Positions 1 through 55,571 of a stretch of 55,571 bases of DNA are shown in pieces; position 1 is the stretch's first letter; the number at the start of each line of letters is the position of its first letter. Below the pieces are notes generated by a model that saw only the letters and a program-made list of their open reading frames with translations, was not told the origin of the DNA and searched no databases. A program made the translations under genes and the position numbers. The DNA is from Escherichia phage vB_EcoM_JL1. The stretch lies in sequence record OR791690.1. One strand, 5' to 3'.

Positions 1-324
1 GACTTCTTCTCTTCTTTCGAATTCTGATTGAAAGAAAGAAGCATGTCCAAAAGTTCCAATATTACAAAGTTATCTCCCGGCTTGTGGGTGGGCCTTTATA
101 ATAGGAGATGGAGCAATATTGTTGCAATTGAACATGCTTTAGTTGAAGAACAGTTTCGAATGGTAATCCTACTTCACACATGGTTGTTGGAACTTTGTCC
201 GGCCAAAGACAGGGAGTTCAATGATTGCCACATCATTACAACACTGTATGTTTAGTTGACATGCTGAAATGTTTCTAGAATGATTTCAACATGACATGCG
301 GAATACTTCTCCGTATTCTGTTAC

Positions 325-344
325 TTCACATCCAACTAATGTTA
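325..344 (-). promoter_or_regulatory. Phage-promoter-like conserved motif (copy P1)
   Basis: plus ttcacatccaactaatgtta; minus-strand consensus AACATTAGTTGGATTTGAAG shared by about 12 sites. Confidence 0.4.
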
Positions 345-416
345 CAGGTGGCTACAATATTGAAGCCAGCTCTAAGATTAATTGAAACAAGAAAAGGGAG
401 CCGAAGCTCCCAAATA

Positions 417-617
417 TCAGAACGGTATCTCTGTATCGAAATAACCAGAATTGTGCAAATATGCATGCAGTAATACATGCGACTCTTGTTTATATTCTGC
501 TAACAACTCTAAGAAGTCTTTAGTCTCCTCCACTGTAGGACGAGATAAGTTGCTCATGTCACAGGTGTGATGAGGGTTGAAACAGTTTTCGATTTGATTG
601 ATTTGCATGGTATTCAT
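417..617 (-). CDS. Small hypothetical protein (66 aa) ending in SSB-tip-like DTEIPF
   Basis: minus-strand ORF downstream of RNAP gene; C-terminus ...GYFDTEIPF resembles the E. coli SSB tip DDDIPF. Confidence 0.5.
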   Translation of the reverse strand: MNTMQINQIENCFNPHHTCDMSNLSRPTVEETKDFLELLAEYKQESHVLLHAYLHNSGYFDTEIPF

Positions 618-665
618 TATAAGTCTCCAAGTTTGTGGTCATCCTTGACCAATTAGTGTTACTGA

Positions 666-2780
666 TTATTGACAGAAGTAGTAAGCGTGTTCGCTCATCA
701 GAAGCTCTTCAGTTACGATGTTCTCATGATACATCTTGATGCCACCAAGTTGCTTAGACAGATTCTCGAATTGATTGTTGGTTACAAAGATTTCAACATA
801 TGCTGCACGAATAACTTCCATCATACGTGGAGCATCTGCCAAACAGCAACGGAAACAATCATGGATTGAAGTGAAGCCACGAAGACCAGCTTCTTTAGCT
901 TTAACTGCAACAGTACGAGCAACAAGTGCATCAATGCCCTGAATGTAGTTAACAACGAAAGTACGCTTGAATTCTTCTTTAGTTGGATTGGATTCACGAA
1001 TGGTCCAAGGCTTATTCTCCTGAATCTGACCAAAGATAACACGAGTTTGGGAGTCAACACGAATGCTGAATGCCTCACAGATTTCACGAGATGGGAAGCA
1101 AGGCTTCATTACAACCTGACCATCAGTGTGACGATATGTGATGTACTCTTTACCAAGTTCAACACAACGGTTGTATGCAGCATCAGCAGCTTTCTCAATG
1201 AACATGTTAATCTTAGCACCCAATGCGTTATGGATTGCTTCCACACACAGTTCAGCAAATGCCTCAGCTTTCTCCATAGGAATCTGGAGTGCTTCTGTCA
1301 TGTAGCTGATGAAGTCAGAAGAACCAGTCAATGCAGCTTTACCACCACCGTATTGGATAGCCATGTACGGAGTTTTGATAAACTTACGACCAGCTTTCGG
1401 ATTCAAGAATTCATCCATGATTTCAGGAGATGGTTTCATTGAAGACTTGTCCAGCAGCTTCAACAGTTCACGAAGACTCAACTGGTATGGGTCAGATGCT
1501 TTAGTCTCAGAATCAACCAGACCTGTTGCACGAGCCATTTCCATATTACCAGCAATGAATGCCAGATATTGAGTACCAGAACATTTAGCATCTAAGCCAA
1601 AGCCTACACGAGAATCACATTCACCTGTAGTCTCGAACTTGAACCAATCCAGAGCCAGACGAACATAAGTGAATGGCTTGGAAGGACGTTCAGCTTTAGG
1701 CATGTTCATCATGCGAGCAAGTGAACCAGCTGGATTCTGAGCAACATAAGTTAAACGCTTAGCACTGCACCATTCACCACCAGAAATATCTTCCAGCTCT
1801 GCCATAAACATGTTGTATGCAATGGTAGTAGAACCATCTTCGTTAAACTTCTTAACGATGTTCTCAACATTGTGAGAATACAAGCAACGAGCAAAGTCAG
1901 ATGATTGTGGGTTAGGACCAGCACATGCTACATGATACAGACGACCACGGTTATCAGCAAAGTAGTCAGAATACAGTGTGTCCTGATTCATCATTGCTAC
2001 AGCATTGTTCCAAACATGGAGTTCAGTCTGGATTGCTTCTGGCATCTGCAAGCCACCATAGGTACGTTGTTCAAGCATGGACTGAATGATGCGAACCATC
2101 TCAGTCTCCACATGGTACTCAGTATCTTGCAGGAATTCGATTGCAGCTTTCAGAGTTTTGGATGGCTTAACTTTGCCACCTTTAACGAAAGGCTTGCGAC
2201 GAGATTCAGATGTAACACGCTCAGTGAATGGCACTGCGGTATCTTTGGTTGTAACCAGCTCAACCCATGTGTCAGTTTGTTGGAACGACTTATCTTCGTT
2301 CATGGTGATGAAGCCAAAGTGCTTAGCCAGGCCAATGAGGTTGATAGCTGGGTCAACATAGTGCATTGCTTTCAAATCATTGTTGTAACGGTTGGCATCA
2401 GCAATTGAAGCAGAAGCCAGCTCAACCATTGCAATTGCAGGAACAACATCATCACGAGTGAATGAGGTCATCATCTTAAAGATTGCAAGAGCAGCAATAG
2501 CACAGGTCTGAGGTTGCATGTAGTTCTGTTTCTCTTTGGCACGATATACCAGAGCAGTGATAGCAGGGACAACGGATTTGATAGTTTGAGTTGAGATAGT
2601 TGCCATTTTGCGAGTCTCCAATTTAGTTTCGGTTTTAGTTTCGGATTGTGTAGCGGAGGTGATTTCATCTACCATCTGGTTGCAACGGTCCATCGTATCG
2701 AGCACGTCTTTCCAACCGTGGCCTTCTTCTTTTAAGCGAGCACCATCAGCAGCCAGTGTACGATATTCTTCATTAGTCAT
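666..2780 (-). CDS. T7-like single-subunit DNA-dependent RNA polymerase (704 aa, compact)
   Basis: motifs DAKCSGTQYLAF (T7 DGSCSGIQHFSA), KTPYMAIQYGGG, SIHDCF (T7 HDSFGT); ATG at 2780 with GGAGA RBS. Confidence 0.85.
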   Translation of the reverse strand: MTNEEYRTLAADGARLKEEGHGWKDVLDTMDRCNQMVDEITSATQSETKTETKLETRKMATISTQTIKSVVPAITALVYRAKEKQNYMQPQTCAIAALAIFKMMTSFTRDDVVPAIAMVELASASIADANRYNNDLKAMHYVDPAINLIGLAKHFGFITMNEDKSFQQTDTWVELVTTKDTAVPFTERVTSESRRKPFVKGGKVKPSKTLKAAIEFLQDTEYHVETEMVRIIQSMLEQRTYGGLQMPEAIQTELHVWNNAVAMMNQDTLYSDYFADNRGRLYHVACAGPNPQSSDFARCLYSHNVENIVKKFNEDGSTTIAYNMFMAELEDISGGEWCSAKRLTYVAQNPAGSLARMMNMPKAERPSKPFTYVRLALDWFKFETTGECDSRVGFGLDAKCSGTQYLAFIAGNMEMARATGLVDSETKASDPYQLSLRELLKLLDKSSMKPSPEIMDEFLNPKAGRKFIKTPYMAIQYGGGKAALTGSSDFISYMTEALQIPMEKAEAFAELCVEAIHNALGAKINMFIEKAADAAYNRCVELGKEYITYRHTDGQVVMKPCFPSREICEAFSIRVDSQTRVIFGQIQENKPWTIRESNPTKEEFKRTFVVNYIQGIDALVARTVAVKAKEAGLRGFTSIHDCFRCCLADAPRMMEVIRAAYVEIFVTNNQFENLSKQLGGIKMYHENIVTEELLMSEHAYYFCQ

Positions 2781-2842
2781 GATAAAGTCTCCAATTGATT
2801 ATGATTTAACTGAAACGGATTAGACTTGCGTAGCCTATTCAT

Positions 2843-2862
2843 AATCACAACCAACTAATGGT
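2843..2862 (-). promoter_or_regulatory. Phage-promoter-like conserved motif (copy P2), 63 nt upstream of RNAP start
   Basis: plus aatcacaaccaactaatggt. Confidence 0.4.
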
Positions 2863-2995
2863 GAGGTGAGCACACTACAACAGCGTACTCTGATTGCCTT
2901 TGACCTTGACTTATAAGCGAAGCGCCTAACTTGGTGTTGTTTGAAAGCCGATAGGCTGTAGGAAAAAGTTGGAGTAGGGACCGTATTTAAGTCCG

Positions 2996-40598: not shown

Positions 40599-40779
40599 AA
40601 ATCACCTTAGATGGCGCACGCACCACTTGAGCAGTCGTTATCGCCCTCACCAGGAACGATTGCTTCTTCGTCCTGCTTCTTCTTAAGTTCTTCAATTGCT
40701 TCTTCGGCAGCACCGAAGTCTAAATTATCAAGTGCATCAAAATCCATAAGGACTCCAGTATTGCGGTTATTAAAGTGGG

Positions 40780-40872
40780 TGGACGAGGTTGGATTCGAAC
40801 CAACGACACATCTGCCTAACAGATTGCTCTACCTGACTAAGCTCTGGAGCAGACCTTCTGAGCTACTCGTCC
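40780..40872 (-). tRNA. tRNA gene with ~20-nt insertion; anticodon probably UAG (Leu) by manual fold
   Basis: acceptor stem GGACGAG/CTCGTCC, T-arm GTTGG-TTCGAAT-CCAAC, D-arm GCTT-AGTCAGGTA-GAGC, anticodon loop GUUAGGC; extra TAGCTCAGAAGGTCTGCTCCAGA between acceptor strand and D-arm. Confidence 0.6.
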
Positions 40873-41860
40873 AAAGAATAAGAGGGTTTTGATAACGCAG
40901 GTTTTCCCGAACTGCGAGGCTTGTAGAATCCGTGAGCCGCCTACTGTGTTTTGACATAACGTGGGATTGATGGTCCCGACTCACTTCATCTCAGGTACGA
41001 GGCACTACTTTGCGAGTGCAAGCAGGTGTTGAACCCAAGTACCAACAGGCAACCTGATTTAATCTACCTTTGTAGATACCATCGGTTATGAGCAGTTTAT
41101 TTCCATACTCAGGGCAACTCACTTTAGGGTGAATTTAGGTTACGCAGTGCAGCTTCGAAGTCGCTGCCACAGGCTTGAGATTCCTGTGTGGAGGGAAATC
41201 CAGAGGAGCACTTCCCCAAGGAGTTACGTTTCATATTGGCATAGCTTCTCACACTAAGCCAATTGAAGACATTCCAGTGTGCTCGTCCGTCCTCTAGAAA
41301 TATCCAACTGCATAATTAAGTTTGTACTCTGTCACATCCCCACGCGCACTGAGGGACTTAAGCCTGCATTGCATCGCAGAATACAAATTAATTATTGCTC
41401 CGATTTATTAATCACATCTCGAAGCCACAATGCGCCAAATTTGGTTACGTGGGATTGGAAGACCACGGAGAGGACTTAAATTTAATTAAGCCGCAACTCG
41501 CATTTCAGAATCATTTGCATTTATTTTAAATGAATAAAACAGTCGCAATAACTCCAGGCAGTTTAGGCCCGTCGTAAGACTCAGAAAACTACTTCAATTT
41601 GTACACAACAAATTTCCCAACATTGCCTTCCGTCGAAGGCTCATGCACTGGTGTTTGAATTATGCACAAATTGAAATAACTTCAATGAACACTCTTGTCT
41701 GGGCCATGAGATTGGGCATCGGCCTACCTCCCAACTCTAATCACAAGAATGCTCATTGAAGCCCACTCTTCCTTTCAGAATGGGTTCAAGGCAGCACCGG
41801 AAATATTCCAGTGCATGCCAGATCGATTTAGCTTAGTCTCTCAAGTTTGCCATCGGCAAC

Positions 41861-43325: not shown

Positions 43326-43606
43326 TTGCGAGTTGCGATTTGCATGGACTTGTTTGGGCCGCAGTAGAAATATTTCTTAACTTCGGCAAGGGTGTAGTTG
43401 GCACTGCTTTCAAGCAACTCCTTAAAGGTGTGCTTCCAGAATCCATCTTTCTCCGACAAACTTACGTGGAAAGAATTGGTGCCGTTATAGTACCAACGCC
43501 CACCAACGAGAACGAAGTGGATTGTTTCTTCCTCTCCTTCCCCACTCGACGGAAACATTAGTACATTTCTCAACGTCAAAACTTTAGCAGAATGCTTGCG
43601 AATCAT
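43286..43606 (-). CDS. Hypothetical protein
   Basis: 106 aa; GGAGAG RBS. Confidence 0.45.
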   Translation of the reverse strand: MIRKHSAKVLTLRNVLMFPSSGEGEEETIHFVLVGGRWYYNGTNSFHVSLSEKDGFWKHTFKELLESSANYTLAEVKKYFYCGPNKSMQIATRNWTTNQPIYGVPF

Positions 43607-44157
43607 AGGAACTCTCCAATTTTCGATTCAGTGTTTGTGACTTCTCTTCTCATCTTTTGGCCCAGGAACAGGCCACAGGGTAGCGCAGGAAGGCCGAAAA
43701 TCGGGCCACTGCCTACCGTTTGTGTCAATTCTGGATAACTGCATTGGCGAAGGGTTACTCCCGTTAGGGTGCGATACGCTAATCACATGAGTGTCGTCGC
43801 CTTGCGGCTCAGGCGTGTCACAGAGGCTTTGCAACCCTTCCCAATACATTCACCCAATCCACCCGCTTTGGCATAGCTGGTGGCGCGGTTTTGTGCGGAT
43901 TATGCCACTCTAAGCCCTGTTTGTCCGACTTCCTCAGAGCACCAGCAGCTTGTGGCACAAACCTATTTTCGAATGACTAACATAAGCATGAGGCATAACC
44001 CTCTAATTATTCAGCCCTAACAGCTTGCTTATTTAGTTCCAATTCATCCCAATACATCGCCTATAACAAGTGAATAGCTTTCTGTGGATAAGTATTCCGG
44101 CCCTTTGGCCTATGTTAAAAGATAAATGTATATGATGGAAACATTCCATCGAAAAGA

Positions 44158-44222
44158 ACTTTGTAGAACGAATCGAACGTTCTCACACGTCTTGGTACCA
44201 GACGGACTACCTAGTTACAAAG
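44158..44222 (-). ncRNA. tRNA-like minihelix (D-arm-less)
   Basis: acceptor CTTTGTA/TACAAAG, T-arm GAACG-TTCGATT-CGTTC, one internal hairpin; 65 nt; 20 nt downstream of motif P7. Confidence 0.3.
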
Positions 44223-44241
44223 CTCTTATCTGATGTTGTTT

Positions 44242-44260
44242 CTTCAATTCCAACTAATGT
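44242..44260 (-). promoter_or_regulatory. Phage-promoter-like conserved motif (copy P7)
   Basis: plus cttcaattccaactaatgt. Confidence 0.4.
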
Positions 44261-44271
44261 AATTTTGTGCT

Positions 44272-44362
44272 GTACTCTCTTCCCAAGTTGTCCAGACTTG
44301 GTTGTTTGAGGCTGCGCTTATTGCAGTGGACTTCCTCTACAATTGCTAGTGGAAAAGAGTAC
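44272..44362 (-). ncRNA. Candidate structured small RNA between motifs P8 and P7
   Basis: 12-bp inverted repeat arms (gtactctcttcc / ggaaaagagtac) enclosing ~67 nt with an internal hairpin; no ORF. Confidence 0.25.
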
Positions 44363-44379
44363 AGACAGAATTACACTAA

Positions 44380-44399
44380 TTCAATTCCAATTAATGTTT
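44380..44399 (-). promoter_or_regulatory. Phage-promoter-like conserved motif (copy P8)
   Basis: plus ttcaattccaattaatgttt. Confidence 0.35.
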
Positions 44400-44465
44400 C
44401 AGAATTATTCCAATATTCCAAACAAAAAGAATAATAAGAATAAATTAAATAAATGAAGAAAGTGC

Positions 44466-44495
44466 TTGACACCCATTTGGCGATAAGTGTATAAT
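44466..44495 (+). promoter_or_regulatory. Near-consensus sigma70 promoter on the non-coding strand
   Basis: TTGACA (44466..44471), 18-nt spacer, TATAAT (44490..44495), TG immediately upstream of the -10. Confidence 0.5.
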
Positions 44496-44520
44496 GCCTT
44501 TCTTCCCTAAGTGGTCAGAA

Positions 44521-44539
44521 TCAAATCCCACTAATGTTT
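44521..44539 (-). promoter_or_regulatory. Phage-promoter-like conserved motif (copy P9)
   Basis: plus tcaaatcccactaatgttt. Confidence 0.4.
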
Positions 44540-44606
44540 CAGACTAAAGCCGAAGGCCAATGCGAGCACAAAACCCGCTTGGCACTTCGAAGAAACCCGC
44601 CTGGAA

Positions 44607-44846
44607 CTATAGTGTTTTCCAGTCCGAGTCAAATAGCTCTTTCGGTCGTGTGTAGATAGTAGAAGAATCAATACTTAAGAAAGTATGGTCCCCGTACTTC
44701 TTCACTTCTTGGTAAGCAAACCCATCTACCCAACTTCCGCAGTGAGTTTTAATCTTTGTAGGCCCAAGAATACGATAGAAAGTGTTTCGAGGCTGGTGGT
44801 GAACAATCAATCCAGCCTCAAGTTCAGCAATATTTAAATCACGCAT
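44607..44846 (-). CDS. Hypothetical protein
   Basis: 79 aa. Confidence 0.45.
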   Translation of the reverse strand: MRDLNIAELEAGLIVHHQPRNTFYRILGPTKIKTHCGSWVDGFAYQEVKKYGDHTFLSIDSSTIYTRPKELFDSDWKTL

Positions 44847-45396
44847 TTAAGAATAATATTCCCTCAGAGAAAATGTAGTCACTTCCATAATCTCTGGTGA
44901 TTGCATCCCAATCAATATATGGTGCAAGTCGGTCTGGAATATCCAGTGCCTCACTTTGCTTCAAATATTCTGTAATTGAGTCGCAACGTGTAATGAACAT
45001 ATCGTTCAAATCATCCACAGTGAAAATATCAATCTCACCACTGCGGAATGCTGCAAGAATTACATCCAAATCGGTGTCAACAAGCAGCTCATTGAACTTA
45101 TCATATTTACGAATGCTGAATAGCCCATTGGCAAAGCAAACTTCGGTAACATCTTCTTCATTTGACTCAATTACGTCGTATGTACCGGTTTCTGGATATT
45201 CAATGCCATATTCTTCATGCAAATAATCTCGCATGTTGAAATCATAGTGACGCCAAGACAGGCCATCAATCCACGCATCTACAAATTCAGAATTAGTTTC
45301 GCCTGTGTAGAAACGAACCAATAAGGTTTCATCTCTACGCCAGGACTTAAGCTGTTCTACTGCTTGAGTAATTTGGTTTTCCATCGGATTCTCCAT
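44839..45396 (-). CDS. ArdA-like acidic protein (candidate anti-restriction DNA mimic)
   Basis: 185 aa, strongly acidic; C-terminal YIDWDAITRDYGSDYIFSEGILF resembles ArdA as I recall it. Confidence 0.45.
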   Translation of the reverse strand: MENPMENQITQAVEQLKSWRRDETLLVRFYTGETNSEFVDAWIDGLSWRHYDFNMRDYLHEEYGIEYPETGTYDVIESNEEDVTEVCFANGLFSIRKYDKFNELLVDTDLDVILAAFRSGEIDIFTVDDLNDMFITRCDSITEYLKQSEALDIPDRLAPYIDWDAITRDYGSDYIFSEGILFLNA

Positions 45397-52520: not shown

Positions 52521-52992
52521 AATATTTGTTGCTCAAAATCGGGGCGGCAAACGATATTAAATTCGATGCTTTGTCCGACTTCTTCTCTTCTTTCGAATTC
52601 TGATTGAAAGAAAGAAGCATGTCCAAAAGTTCCAATATTACAAAGTTATCTCCCGGCTTGTGGGTGGGCCTTTATAATAGGAGATGGAGCAATATTGTTG
52701 CAATTGAACATGCTTTAGTTGAAGAACAGTTTCGAATGGTAATCCTACTTCACACATGGTTGTTGGAACTTTGTCCGGCCAAAGACAGGGAGTTCAATGA
52801 TTGCCACATCATTACAACACTGTATGTTTAGTTGACATGCTGAAATGTTTCTAGAATGATTTCAACATGACATGCGGAATACTTCTCCGTATTCTGTTAC
52901 TTCACATCCAACTAATGTTACAGGTGGCTACAATATTGAAGCCAGCTCTAAGATTAATTGAAACAAGAAAAGGGAGCCGAAGCTCCCAAATA

Positions 52993-53193
52993 TCAGAACG
53001 GTATCTCTGTATCGAAATAACCAGAATTGTGCAAATATGCATGCAGTAATACATGCGACTCTTGTTTATATTCTGCTAACAACTCTAAGAAGTCTTTAGT
53101 CTCCTCCACTGTAGGACGAGATAAGTTGCTCATGTCACAGGTGTGATGAGGGTTGAAACAGTTTTCGATTTGATTGATTTGCATGGTATTCAT
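52993..53193 (-). CDS. Copy of 417..617 (small protein ending DTEIPF)
   Basis: sequence identity with 417..617. Confidence 0.5.
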   Translation of the reverse strand: MNTMQINQIENCFNPHHTCDMSNLSRPTVEETKDFLELLAEYKQESHVLLHAYLHNSGYFDTEIPF

Positions 53194-53241
53194 TATAAGT
53201 CTCCAAGTTTGTGGTCATCCTTGACCAATTAGTGTTACTGA

Positions 53242-55356
53242 TTATTGACAGAAGTAGTAAGCGTGTTCGCTCATCAGAAGCTCTTCAGTTACGATGTTCT
53301 CATGATACATCTTGATGCCACCAAGTTGCTTAGACAGATTCTCGAATTGATTGTTGGTTACAAAGATTTCAACATATGCTGCACGAATAACTTCCATCAT
53401 ACGTGGAGCATCTGCCAAACAGCAACGGAAACAATCATGGATTGAAGTGAAGCCACGAAGACCAGCTTCTTTAGCTTTAACTGCAACAGTACGAGCAACA
53501 AGTGCATCAATGCCCTGAATGTAGTTAACAACGAAAGTACGCTTGAATTCTTCTTTAGTTGGATTGGATTCACGAATGGTCCAAGGCTTATTCTCCTGAA
53601 TCTGACCAAAGATAACACGAGTTTGGGAGTCAACACGAATGCTGAATGCCTCACAGATTTCACGAGATGGGAAGCAAGGCTTCATTACAACCTGACCATC
53701 AGTGTGACGATATGTGATGTACTCTTTACCAAGTTCAACACAACGGTTGTATGCAGCATCAGCAGCTTTCTCAATGAACATGTTAATCTTAGCACCCAAT
53801 GCGTTATGGATTGCTTCCACACACAGTTCAGCAAATGCCTCAGCTTTCTCCATAGGAATCTGGAGTGCTTCTGTCATGTAGCTGATGAAGTCAGAAGAAC
53901 CAGTCAATGCAGCTTTACCACCACCGTATTGGATAGCCATGTACGGAGTTTTGATAAACTTACGACCAGCTTTCGGATTCAAGAATTCATCCATGATTTC
54001 AGGAGATGGTTTCATTGAAGACTTGTCCAGCAGCTTCAACAGTTCACGAAGACTCAACTGGTATGGGTCAGATGCTTTAGTCTCAGAATCAACCAGACCT
54101 GTTGCACGAGCCATTTCCATATTACCAGCAATGAATGCCAGATATTGAGTACCAGAACATTTAGCATCTAAGCCAAAGCCTACACGAGAATCACATTCAC
54201 CTGTAGTCTCGAACTTGAACCAATCCAGAGCCAGACGAACATAAGTGAATGGCTTGGAAGGACGTTCAGCTTTAGGCATGTTCATCATGCGAGCAAGTGA
54301 ACCAGCTGGATTCTGAGCAACATAAGTTAAACGCTTAGCACTGCACCATTCACCACCAGAAATATCTTCCAGCTCTGCCATAAACATGTTGTATGCAATG
54401 GTAGTAGAACCATCTTCGTTAAACTTCTTAACGATGTTCTCAACATTGTGAGAATACAAGCAACGAGCAAAGTCAGATGATTGTGGGTTAGGACCAGCAC
54501 ATGCTACATGATACAGACGACCACGGTTATCAGCAAAGTAGTCAGAATACAGTGTGTCCTGATTCATCATTGCTACAGCATTGTTCCAAACATGGAGTTC
54601 AGTCTGGATTGCTTCTGGCATCTGCAAGCCACCATAGGTACGTTGTTCAAGCATGGACTGAATGATGCGAACCATCTCAGTCTCCACATGGTACTCAGTA
54701 TCTTGCAGGAATTCGATTGCAGCTTTCAGAGTTTTGGATGGCTTAACTTTGCCACCTTTAACGAAAGGCTTGCGACGAGATTCAGATGTAACACGCTCAG
54801 TGAATGGCACTGCGGTATCTTTGGTTGTAACCAGCTCAACCCATGTGTCAGTTTGTTGGAACGACTTATCTTCGTTCATGGTGATGAAGCCAAAGTGCTT
54901 AGCCAGGCCAATGAGGTTGATAGCTGGGTCAACATAGTGCATTGCTTTCAAATCATTGTTGTAACGGTTGGCATCAGCAATTGAAGCAGAAGCCAGCTCA
55001 ACCATTGCAATTGCAGGAACAACATCATCACGAGTGAATGAGGTCATCATCTTAAAGATTGCAAGAGCAGCAATAGCACAGGTCTGAGGTTGCATGTAGT
55101 TCTGTTTCTCTTTGGCACGATATACCAGAGCAGTGATAGCAGGGACAACGGATTTGATAGTTTGAGTTGAGATAGTTGCCATTTTGCGAGTCTCCAATTT
55201 AGTTTCGGTTTTAGTTTCGGATTGTGTAGCGGAGGTGATTTCATCTACCATCTGGTTGCAACGGTCCATCGTATCGAGCACGTCTTTCCAACCGTGGCCT
55301 TCTTCTTTTAAGCGAGCACCATCAGCAGCCAGTGTACGATATTCTTCATTAGTCAT
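53242..55356 (-). CDS. Copy of T7-like single-subunit RNA polymerase gene
   Basis: identical to 666..2780. Confidence 0.85.
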   Translation of the reverse strand: MTNEEYRTLAADGARLKEEGHGWKDVLDTMDRCNQMVDEITSATQSETKTETKLETRKMATISTQTIKSVVPAITALVYRAKEKQNYMQPQTCAIAALAIFKMMTSFTRDDVVPAIAMVELASASIADANRYNNDLKAMHYVDPAINLIGLAKHFGFITMNEDKSFQQTDTWVELVTTKDTAVPFTERVTSESRRKPFVKGGKVKPSKTLKAAIEFLQDTEYHVETEMVRIIQSMLEQRTYGGLQMPEAIQTELHVWNNAVAMMNQDTLYSDYFADNRGRLYHVACAGPNPQSSDFARCLYSHNVENIVKKFNEDGSTTIAYNMFMAELEDISGGEWCSAKRLTYVAQNPAGSLARMMNMPKAERPSKPFTYVRLALDWFKFETTGECDSRVGFGLDAKCSGTQYLAFIAGNMEMARATGLVDSETKASDPYQLSLRELLKLLDKSSMKPSPEIMDEFLNPKAGRKFIKTPYMAIQYGGGKAALTGSSDFISYMTEALQIPMEKAEAFAELCVEAIHNALGAKINMFIEKAADAAYNRCVELGKEYITYRHTDGQVVMKPCFPSREICEAFSIRVDSQTRVIFGQIQENKPWTIRESNPTKEEFKRTFVVNYIQGIDALVARTVAVKAKEAGLRGFTSIHDCFRCCLADAPRMMEVIRAAYVEIFVTNNQFENLSKQLGGIKMYHENIVTEELLMSEHAYYFCQ

Positions 55357-55571
55357 GATAAAGTCTCCAATTGATTATGATTTAACTGAAACGGATTAGA
55401 CTTGCGTAGCCTATTCATAATCACAACCAACTAATGGTGAGGTGAGCACACTACAACAGCGTACTCTGATTGCCTTTGACCTTGACTTATAAGCGAAGCG
55501 CCTAACTTGGTGTTGTTTGAAAGCCGATAGGCTGTAGGAAAAAGTTGGAGTAGGGACCGTATTTAAGTCCG

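Follow-up and report, generated by a model that had tools for sequence, protein, structure and literature searches.

Predicted phage promoters head an array of structured RNA modules, one of tRNA descent, in a Carltongylesvirus genome

The junction where the early genes (one for an anti-restriction protein, one of 79 aa) meet the DNA-metabolism genes of Escherichia phage vB_EcoM_JL1 (OR791690.1) is non-coding, and the two elements that lie in it behind copies of a promoter motif, element A and element B, are, to judge from their folding and covariation, genuine structured RNAs of the minus strand. As neither has a match in Rfam or a homologue elsewhere, each appears to represent a new RNA family limited to this group of phages. 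By the sequence of element B and its relatives, the element descends from a tRNA gene, with a product that is no longer a tRNA. The explanation that we favour, with a confidence that is about even, is that the modules are made as one read-through leader and excised from it by host RNases, and that they are accessory and exchanged at the flanking promoter copies.

The window, that is the whole stretch of DNA analysed (55,571 nt), is a Carltongylesvirus genome (Chaseviridae) that at this locus is 94–98% identical to the phages DE15, ST32, SA91KD, and phiEcoM-GJ1 (hereafter GJ1), with 98.5% identity to DE15. Every gene of the window is on the minus strand. A 704-aa ORF is present in two copies, 52,576 bp apart, so the window comprises the whole genome plus a direct terminal repeat of ~3 kb (1..2995 and 52577..55571), and a repeat of ~3 kb is described for the Chaseviridae in the ICTV profile (PMC12842549). 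The ORF encodes a single-subunit RNA polymerase (PF00940; 666..2780 = 53242..55356), and the same repeat holds one copy of the promoter motif (342 = 52918). A T7-like primase-helicase and a family A DNA polymerase are encoded downstream of the locus, and an ArdA-like anti-restriction gene (phrog_14321) adjoins the array. No ORF of at least 60 aa was present between the motif copies on either strand, as the initial annotation had stated when it set the stretch apart from protein-coding DNA, and the stretch is indeed non-coding; the longest ORF between the motifs has 55 aa (+ strand, 44267..44434), and the DE15 record annotates a 55-aa CDS antisense to element A.

The motif ACATTARTNGGAWTTGA has eight matches in the window against 0.22 expected, all eight of them on the minus strand. 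Three exact matches (44244–44260, 44381–44397, and 44521–44537) fall at the junction, and a repeat search recovered these copies as a single family of 23-nt direct repeats with spacings of 137 and 140 nt, which in minus-strand order are P9 (44521..44543), P8 (44381..44403), and P7 (44244..44266); the positions and the minus orientation assigned to the three copies earlier are confirmed by both results. A looser motif search returned further minus-strand sites, several of which lie 40–95 nt upstream of ORF starts. The features by which promoters of a T7-like polymerase are recognised, an intergenic, strand-specific, conserved motif of about 17–23 bp together with a polymerase gene in the same genome, were all found, and from the enrichment, strand, position, and polymerase gene we infer that the motif is a predicted promoter of the phage's own single-subunit RNA polymerase. 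These promoters are not new, having already been predicted for phiEcoM-GJ1 in 2008. GenBank labels the homologous GJ1 sites "putative phage promoter 4", which is P9, and "5", which is a fused P8/P7 (EF460875), and the SA91KD record (OL960574) describes its promoters as "similar to promoter of phiEcoM-GJ1 (Jamalludeen 2008)", annotations that agree with the first description of the motif as promoter-like. The motif and its genomic position are shared with GJ1 (Jamalludeen et al. 2008), which, unlike the present genome, has no 137-nt element A cassette; three motif copies are found here because this extra cassette is carried. As the 2022 ICTV profile reports that promoter sequences of the Chaseviridae have not been identified so far (PMC12842549), the promoter role of the motif is a predicted one; no transcriptome or promoter study of the Chaseviridae was found in the literature.

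The array was compared with ~30 related loci from isolates, IMG/VR, and metagenomes, four of which came from a metagenome scan. Read along the minus strand, it consists of the stop codon of the 79-aa gene (44607), a hairpin-rich spacer, P9, an AT-rich stretch, P8 with its cassette or cassettes, P7 with what is here called the 'slot' RNA, and an invariant hairpin, GAUGGAAUGUUUCCAUC. The spacer (44542..44588, minus strand) contains two direct GCGGGTTT repeats, and the homologous stretch of the SA91KD record is annotated as a rho-independent terminator; a simple terminator scan made no call on it. The invariant hairpin (44134..44150, minus strand) stands directly after element B and is unchanged in all of the relatives bar one A-to-G substitution, which preserves a G.U pair. 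A small ORF from the AUG in this hairpin (MECFH...) was considered and rejected, as single-base indels shift its frame between close relatives. Beyond the invariant hairpin, 4HA13, phiA050, and two uncultured relatives have a further hairpin with covarying stems (minus strand; L004 ~1378–1420, L006 ~1909–1950, L019 ~358–400, and also L104), the conserved loop of which, UAUC(AG)UCCGU, is similar to the GGUAGUCCGUC segment of element B; where these four relatives have the further hairpin, the window reads GGCC-AAAG-GGCC. GJ1 and SA91KD carry 250–560 nt of extra DNA between the invariant hairpin and the gene of a 73-aa ORF (43628..43849). The start of that ORF, ATGTATTGGGA (43839..43849, minus strand), is repeated ~205 nt upstream (44044..44056, minus strand), where it heads a 16-codon ORF (MYWDELELNKQAVRAE), and the repeated start may be a relic of gene deletion or duplication.

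Among near-identical genomes, the cassettes are present, absent, or swapped for small ORFs. The 137-nt P8 cassette is missing in GJ1, MLP1, BSBP01, and others, where P8 and P7 are fused into one copy, and a 58-aa ORF (phrog_2834) is found in place of the element A cassette in Mangalitsa, PO103-1, Pel53, FXie, and Faunus. PYps3T and phiA050 have another, different ORF at the cassette position, and the metagenomic contig L105 has an insert of ~480 nt there. The phrog_2834 ORF is Cys-rich (L012, 2632..2808; homologues in L088, L091, L093, L099, L101, and L005), starts 3–5 nt past the promoter motif, and ends on a TAG stop codon within the next promoter motif. The promoter copies presumably act as cassette boundaries, through recombination between copies, and the patchy distribution of the RNA modules, their rapid swapping, and their position beside the ArdA-like gene suggest that they are accessory, with a role that might lie in interaction with the host.

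Element A (44252..44381, minus strand), the module after P8, forms, by covariation, folding, and inverted repeats, a three-way junction within a stalk of ~31 bp. Inverted-repeat arms of 12 bp had been noted after P8; such arms exist, at 44270–44283 and 44351–44364, with a corrected length of 14 nt at 93% complementarity, and they form the inner stem. The RNA has a folding energy of −33.9 kcal/mol (z = −3.2 against shuffled controls). Across the seven lineages compared, pairing holds in 95 of the 98 cells of the 14-bp stem, with two to four pair types at nearly every position, and sliding its register lowers pairing to ~40–50%. The stem also has 14 G.U against a single A.C, and therefore the sense strand is the folding strand. 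The core of the element comprises one helix, bearing the conserved bulge AAGUCCA as well as an apical hairpin, and a second hairpin, CCAAGU[CUGGACA]ACUUGG, the loop of which is complementary to the bulge; both of these segments are invariant, hence uninformative for covariation, and a pseudoknot between them is possible in the modelled fold. The leader after P8 (44365–44381) pairs with the RNA copy of the P7 region (44252–44268), which supplies the 3' strand of the ~31-bp stalk. This stalk was recovered in all six of the element A-bearing phages that were folded, and its changes immediately before the promoter core compensate for one another. In the Aeromonas phage phiA050, a homologue of element A occupies the last slot, within a 17–20-bp stem. 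A search of bacterial genomes and IMG/VR with the 17-nt core of element A returned chance or unrelated matches only.

Element B (44154..44227, minus strand), the slot RNA after P7, consists of a 12-bp closing stem, a vestigial D arm, a middle hairpin (44188–44204), and a T arm (44166–44182). The perfect 7-bp stem CTTTGTA/TACAAAG and the canonical T arm GAACG-TTCGATT-CGTTC of the initial annotation (44158..44222) are both present, and the T arm is a feature kept across the variants; the acceptor-like stem proved to be only part of a continuous closing helix of 11–12 bp (15 nt at 87% complementarity in the repeat search). The D arm, which had been taken to be missing, is vestigial rather than absent: ACU[AGGU]AGU is able to form, its GG is invariant, and RNAfold draws a 3-bp 'mini D arm', to which covariation in the 13-sequence alignment gives no support (the pair 25–34 is unpaired in 6 of the 13).

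The fold of element B exceeds that of shuffled sequences alone (z = −2.4) and with the adjoining hairpin included (z = −3.7). In an alignment of 13 distinct sequences, which come from only ~3–4 independent lineages such that counts of covariation overstate the events behind them, standard pairs make up 97.6% of pair cells compared with 40–50% for slid partners, and 10 pairs are altered on both sides compared with one or two when slid; none of 500 shuffles matched the observed values. Of the covarying pairs, the 12-bp closing stem has five, the middle hairpin two, and the T stem one, and the alignment contains 12 G.U cells and no A.C. That structured elements follow P8 and P7 is thereby upheld, through folds that beat shuffles, compensatory changes, and the G.U/A.C asymmetry on the minus strand.

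Four forms of the slot RNA were distinguished: B1 (the window type), B2 (flopper, MLP1, and PYps23T), B3 (BSBP01), and B4 (an IMG/VR contig). Together with the metagenomic contig L104, these forms have six unrelated T-stem sequences, all with G53:C61 and a TTCRANN loop (eight loop variants). In Faunus and Pel53 the homologous closing stem is retained and the T arm is gone, and therefore tRNA mimicry is not essential to the role of the slot. The apex of the middle hairpin (44188..44204, loop GGUACCA) is a perfect palindrome of 6–10 nt in every B1/B3 variant, despite differing sequences (GGUACC, CUGGUACCAG (DNA: CTGGTACCAG), CGGCCG, GCGGCCGC, CGGCGCCG, and GUGCAC; homologous palindromic apices in L001, L004, L090, L096, L099, and L101). 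Because the palindromes are unusable for intramolecular pairing, they point to loop–loop dimerisation, a dimeric protein site, or template-switch mutation. No homologues of the elements were found outside the Chaseviridae, and a promoter-plus-leader pattern searched against IMG/VR mostly matched one unrelated coding sequence. A set of small viral contigs from IMG/VR (L228–L277, ~1.2–2.3 kb) has a common hairpin, CAGCAAGTTTGGACAGCTTGCTGG, ~130 nt from one end, which appears to be a chance pattern match unrelated to this phage.

The descent of element B from a tRNA gene is shown by a syntenic homologue. In L104, the flanks of which are phiA050-like, a full cloverleaf lies between the leader ACAACAUC and the invariant hairpin, i.e., in the same slot, and scores as a tRNA in Rfam (49.3 bits, E = 1.7e-8, gathering score 29); ARAGORN likewise reports a tRNA, the anticodon loop of which is aberrant at 6 nt. 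The acceptor (AACUUUG/CAAAGUU) and D arm (GUA-GCUC-AAUAGGCA-GAGC) of L104 align with GCUUUG-UA-ACU[AGGU]AGU of the window, and a covariance model built from the B1 sequences only detects both L104, with 19.2 bits, and the BSBP01 form, with 16.8 bits. The element was thus rightly described as tRNA-like from the outset, and the 'minihelix' with a transcript of its own gives way to a remodelled tRNA.

Element B shares with the tRNA family (RF00005) a canonical T arm (GAACG-UUCGAUU-CGUUC, with a 5-bp stem, G53:C61, and a 7-nt UUCRANN loop), an acceptor-like stem, and a GG-containing remnant of the D region, and its syntenic homologue passes the model. The window copy differs in several respects: the D arm is reduced to a vestige, the acceptor/T stack is taken beyond the 12 bp of a tRNA by two inner pairs (UA/UA) that L104 lacks, the putative anticodon loop GGUACCA has G33 and C37 (no U33 and no purine at 37; the relatives have CGGCCGA or CGGCGCCGU), and no CCA is encoded. 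Rfam scans returned nothing relevant, both over the whole window at gathering thresholds and over 43800–44900 at E <= 10, and element B was not called by ARAGORN in standard, mitochondrial, or relaxed modes, the one relaxed-mode call placed there being an artefact with a 183-nt 'intron'. A second long stretch of the window (~40600..41860, minus strand) is without a minus-strand ORF above 51 aa. It includes a stalk-enclosed element (41678..41762; 20-bp stem, z = −5.4), the stem of which resembles the element B stem of 4HA13, and an aberrant tRNA-like gene (40788..40843) with an Rfam tRNA score of 27 bits, just under the gathering score of 29. With introns allowed, ARAGORN calls a tRNA-Thr(agt) at 40776..40873, a region that we take to be probably the 'tRNA with intron' reported for GJ1.

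The three motifs had been taken together to drive short structured RNAs, and this fails for the segment after P9. A candidate 'element C' was rejected as an RNA module, since its fold is no better than shuffles and what is conserved in its flanks is a −35 and a −10 hexamer, together a perfect sigma-70 consensus (TTGACA-18-TATAAT, 12/12 matches; 44466..44495, + strand). This predicted promoter faces P9, is the sole perfect sigma-70 consensus in the window, and is antisense to all of the phage genes; it and P9 would be convergent, with start sites ~20 nt apart. Neither hexamer varies in 18 of the 20 related loci, which represent four lineages and several genera (4HA13, Faunus, phiA050, and two metagenomic contigs included). 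The spacer between the hexamers contains a covarying inverted repeat. An AT-rich stretch (44404..44454) with direct and inverted GGAATA(W)/TTATTC repeats lies ahead of the antisense promoter and immediately ahead of P8; it could be a UP element, an operator, or origin iterons. The P8-proximal 61 nt (44386..44446) have 87% identity in an Aeromonas phage and are better conserved than the neighbouring genes. More copies of GGAATA(W)/TTATTC are found in L005, L006, L019, and L104.

Under the favoured explanation, the three motif copies would serve the phage RNA polymerase and head three cassettes, with that of P8 giving the three-way-junction RNA in its ~31-bp stalk and that of P7 giving a degenerate tRNA-derived cloverleaf that keeps the 'top half' only, a long acceptor-like stem and a T arm. 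The leader would read through all of the modules into the DNA-metabolism genes, RNase III would cut the long stalks, and RNase P and 3' tRNA-processing enzymes would cut the tRNA-like module, with stable small RNAs and a processed 5' end on the downstream mRNA as products; phages would exchange the modules by recombination at the flanking promoter copies. We infer both the read-through and the RNase processing, because a simple consensus scan for host-type terminators found none on the sense strand in 43500–45000, the U run after element B is not conserved, and the element A stalk needs P7 to be transcribed. RNase III substrates include long stems in T7 mRNAs and rRNA precursors, and the top half of a tRNA is the part recognised by RNase P, the 3' processing enzymes, and the CCA-adding enzyme. 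Element A alone has a stalk of the size used by RNase III (at least 20 bp, about two turns), at ~31 bp with small bulges, and its cleavage is predicted; the element B stalk, at 12–15 bp, is short for RNase III, and its helix exceeds the 12-bp acceptor-plus-T stack measured by RNase P. There is a precedent in Mycobacterium smegmatis, in which the tRNA-like module of YrlA is cleaved by RNase P and receives CCA (PMC4201824).

The initial annotation had the three promoters driving separate short RNAs, and three small-RNA genes that are independent of one another, with a separate promoter and a termination-made 3' end for each, would account for modules that start 10–20 nt past a motif copy and for the UUUU after the element B stem in most Carltongylesviruses. 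This arrangement is quite unlikely, as the scan of 43500–45000 detected no sense-strand terminator of the kind that an independent gene would own, the U run is missing in 4HA13, MLP1, BSBP01, phiA050, and L104, the element A stalk, with the RNA copy of P7 as its 3' strand, needs transcription across P7, and the segment after P9 holds no RNA module. The element B closing stem was itself tried as an intrinsic terminator and rejected, as its U run is not conserved. It is very improbable that the slot holds a tRNA gene in decay, devoid of present function, with hairpins that arose by chance. A graded series can be drawn from the tRNA-scoring L104 through the shrunken D arm of the window to Faunus and Pel53 without a T arm, and tRNA finders give no call on the window copy, but double changes preserve pairing in three helices, the T loop is kept in eight variants, the slot is filled in every genome examined, and phage genomes seldom retain dead DNA. 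Hardly credible is a reading of the conserved features at the DNA level, as palindromic protein sites or a protein gene on the opposite strand: the perfect 6–10-nt palindrome at the hairpin apex of every element B variant and the annotated 55-aa CDS of DE15 would fit it, but 26 G.U cells against one A.C indicate that only the sense strand folds, the stem sequences vary freely in a way that would scramble an antisense ORF, and indels break every ORF frame between close relatives.

Other readings concern what the modules would do. A trans-acting tRNA mimic, in which released element B decoys a host factor that reads the top half or elbow of tRNA (for example a defence nuclease directed at tRNAs, or an enzyme of tRNA processing or modification) as part of an anti-defence island, is rather unlikely; it would suit an accessory, fast-diverging module that is swapped among phages and adjoins the ArdA-like gene (phrog_14321), as well as the selection on T arm and acceptor stem and not on the anticodon loop, and the second aberrant tRNA-like gene at 40788–40843, but no target is known, decoys of anticodon nucleases would be expected to retain the anticodon loop, and some phages have a version without a T arm. 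More speculative, and distinctly improbable, is an exchangeable cassette array by the anti-restriction gene in which element B, freed by host RNases, would dimerise via its 6-nt loop and act as a top-half tRNA decoy for a host factor of tRNA-directed defence or processing. The self-complementary loops through which this doubtful dimer would form differ by phage (GGUACC, CGGCCG, GGCGCC, or GUGCAC), and the element, if this were true, would be an RNA-based counter-defence element of a new family. The locus might instead be a primary replication origin of the T7 type, at which tandem promoters transcribe into AT-rich repeats and prime or activate DNA synthesis, with the RNA folds secondary. The layout of the T7 origin, the phi1.1A/B promoters plus an AT-rich region, has its counterparts here in tandem promoters, an AT-rich region, and a T7-like primase-helicase and polymerase, from which origin activity would be predicted. 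The AT-rich GGAATA/TTATTC stretch after P9, with its 87% identity over 61 nt to an Aeromonas phage, the strictly conserved sigma-70 promoter alongside, and the T7-like replication genes downstream are consistent with an origin, which is nonetheless unlikely, as it needs neither the sense-strand covariation of elements A and B nor a tRNA-derived fold, cumulative GC skew has no inflection at the locus, and only two GGAATAW copies occur at this site in the window. An origin does not exclude the read-through leader, and a roadblock or switch for the host polymerase at the sigma-70 promoter is a live rival or complement to it.

The layout of the array has parallels in the early/middle junction of T7, which contains the TE terminator, the class II promoters phi1.1A/phi1.1B, the RNase III site R1.1, and the primary origin. 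A terminator-like spacer, tandem promoters for a single-subunit polymerase, an AT-rich stretch, long leader stems, and downstream replication genes are common to both, whereas the T7 stems are simple bulged hairpins and those of the present array enclose a three-way junction and a cloverleaf, and the perfect antisense sigma-70 promoter and the strain-variable cassettes are features of the present array. A non-decoding tRNA-like fold within a longer transcript is also known from plant mitochondrial t-elements, mascRNA, and mitochondrial tRNA punctuation, eukaryotic or organellar systems in which RNase P or RNase Z recognises the fold and defines RNA ends. To our knowledge, no tRNA-like processing signal has been described for the transcript of a phage RNA polymerase. 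Element B also resembles the YrlA-type Y RNAs, non-coding RNAs whose 5' end pairs with the 3' end in a long stem, topped by a tRNA-like T-arm module, some of them phage-encoded (Chen et al. 2014, PMC4201824). YrlA genes sit within 4 kb of a Ro60 gene (PMC4201824); at the present locus there was no Rfam match to YrlA, the GNCGAA(N)G motif was absent, and the neighbouring ORFs scanned had no Pfam domain.

The Chaseviridae are candidates for therapy and biocontrol, and their transcription signals and non-coding RNAs are little-studied ground. The locus supplies a concrete set of conserved promoter copies for the phage RNA polymerase and two RNA families outside Rfam, one of which clearly illustrates the remodelling of a tRNA gene into an RNA that does not decode, and it demonstrates how promoter copies may bound exchangeable cassettes with either RNA or small-protein content. 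Should the RNAs be processed and functional, they would extend tRNA-like punctuation or tRNA mimicry to a phage; if not, the region would still map the switch from early to middle transcription.
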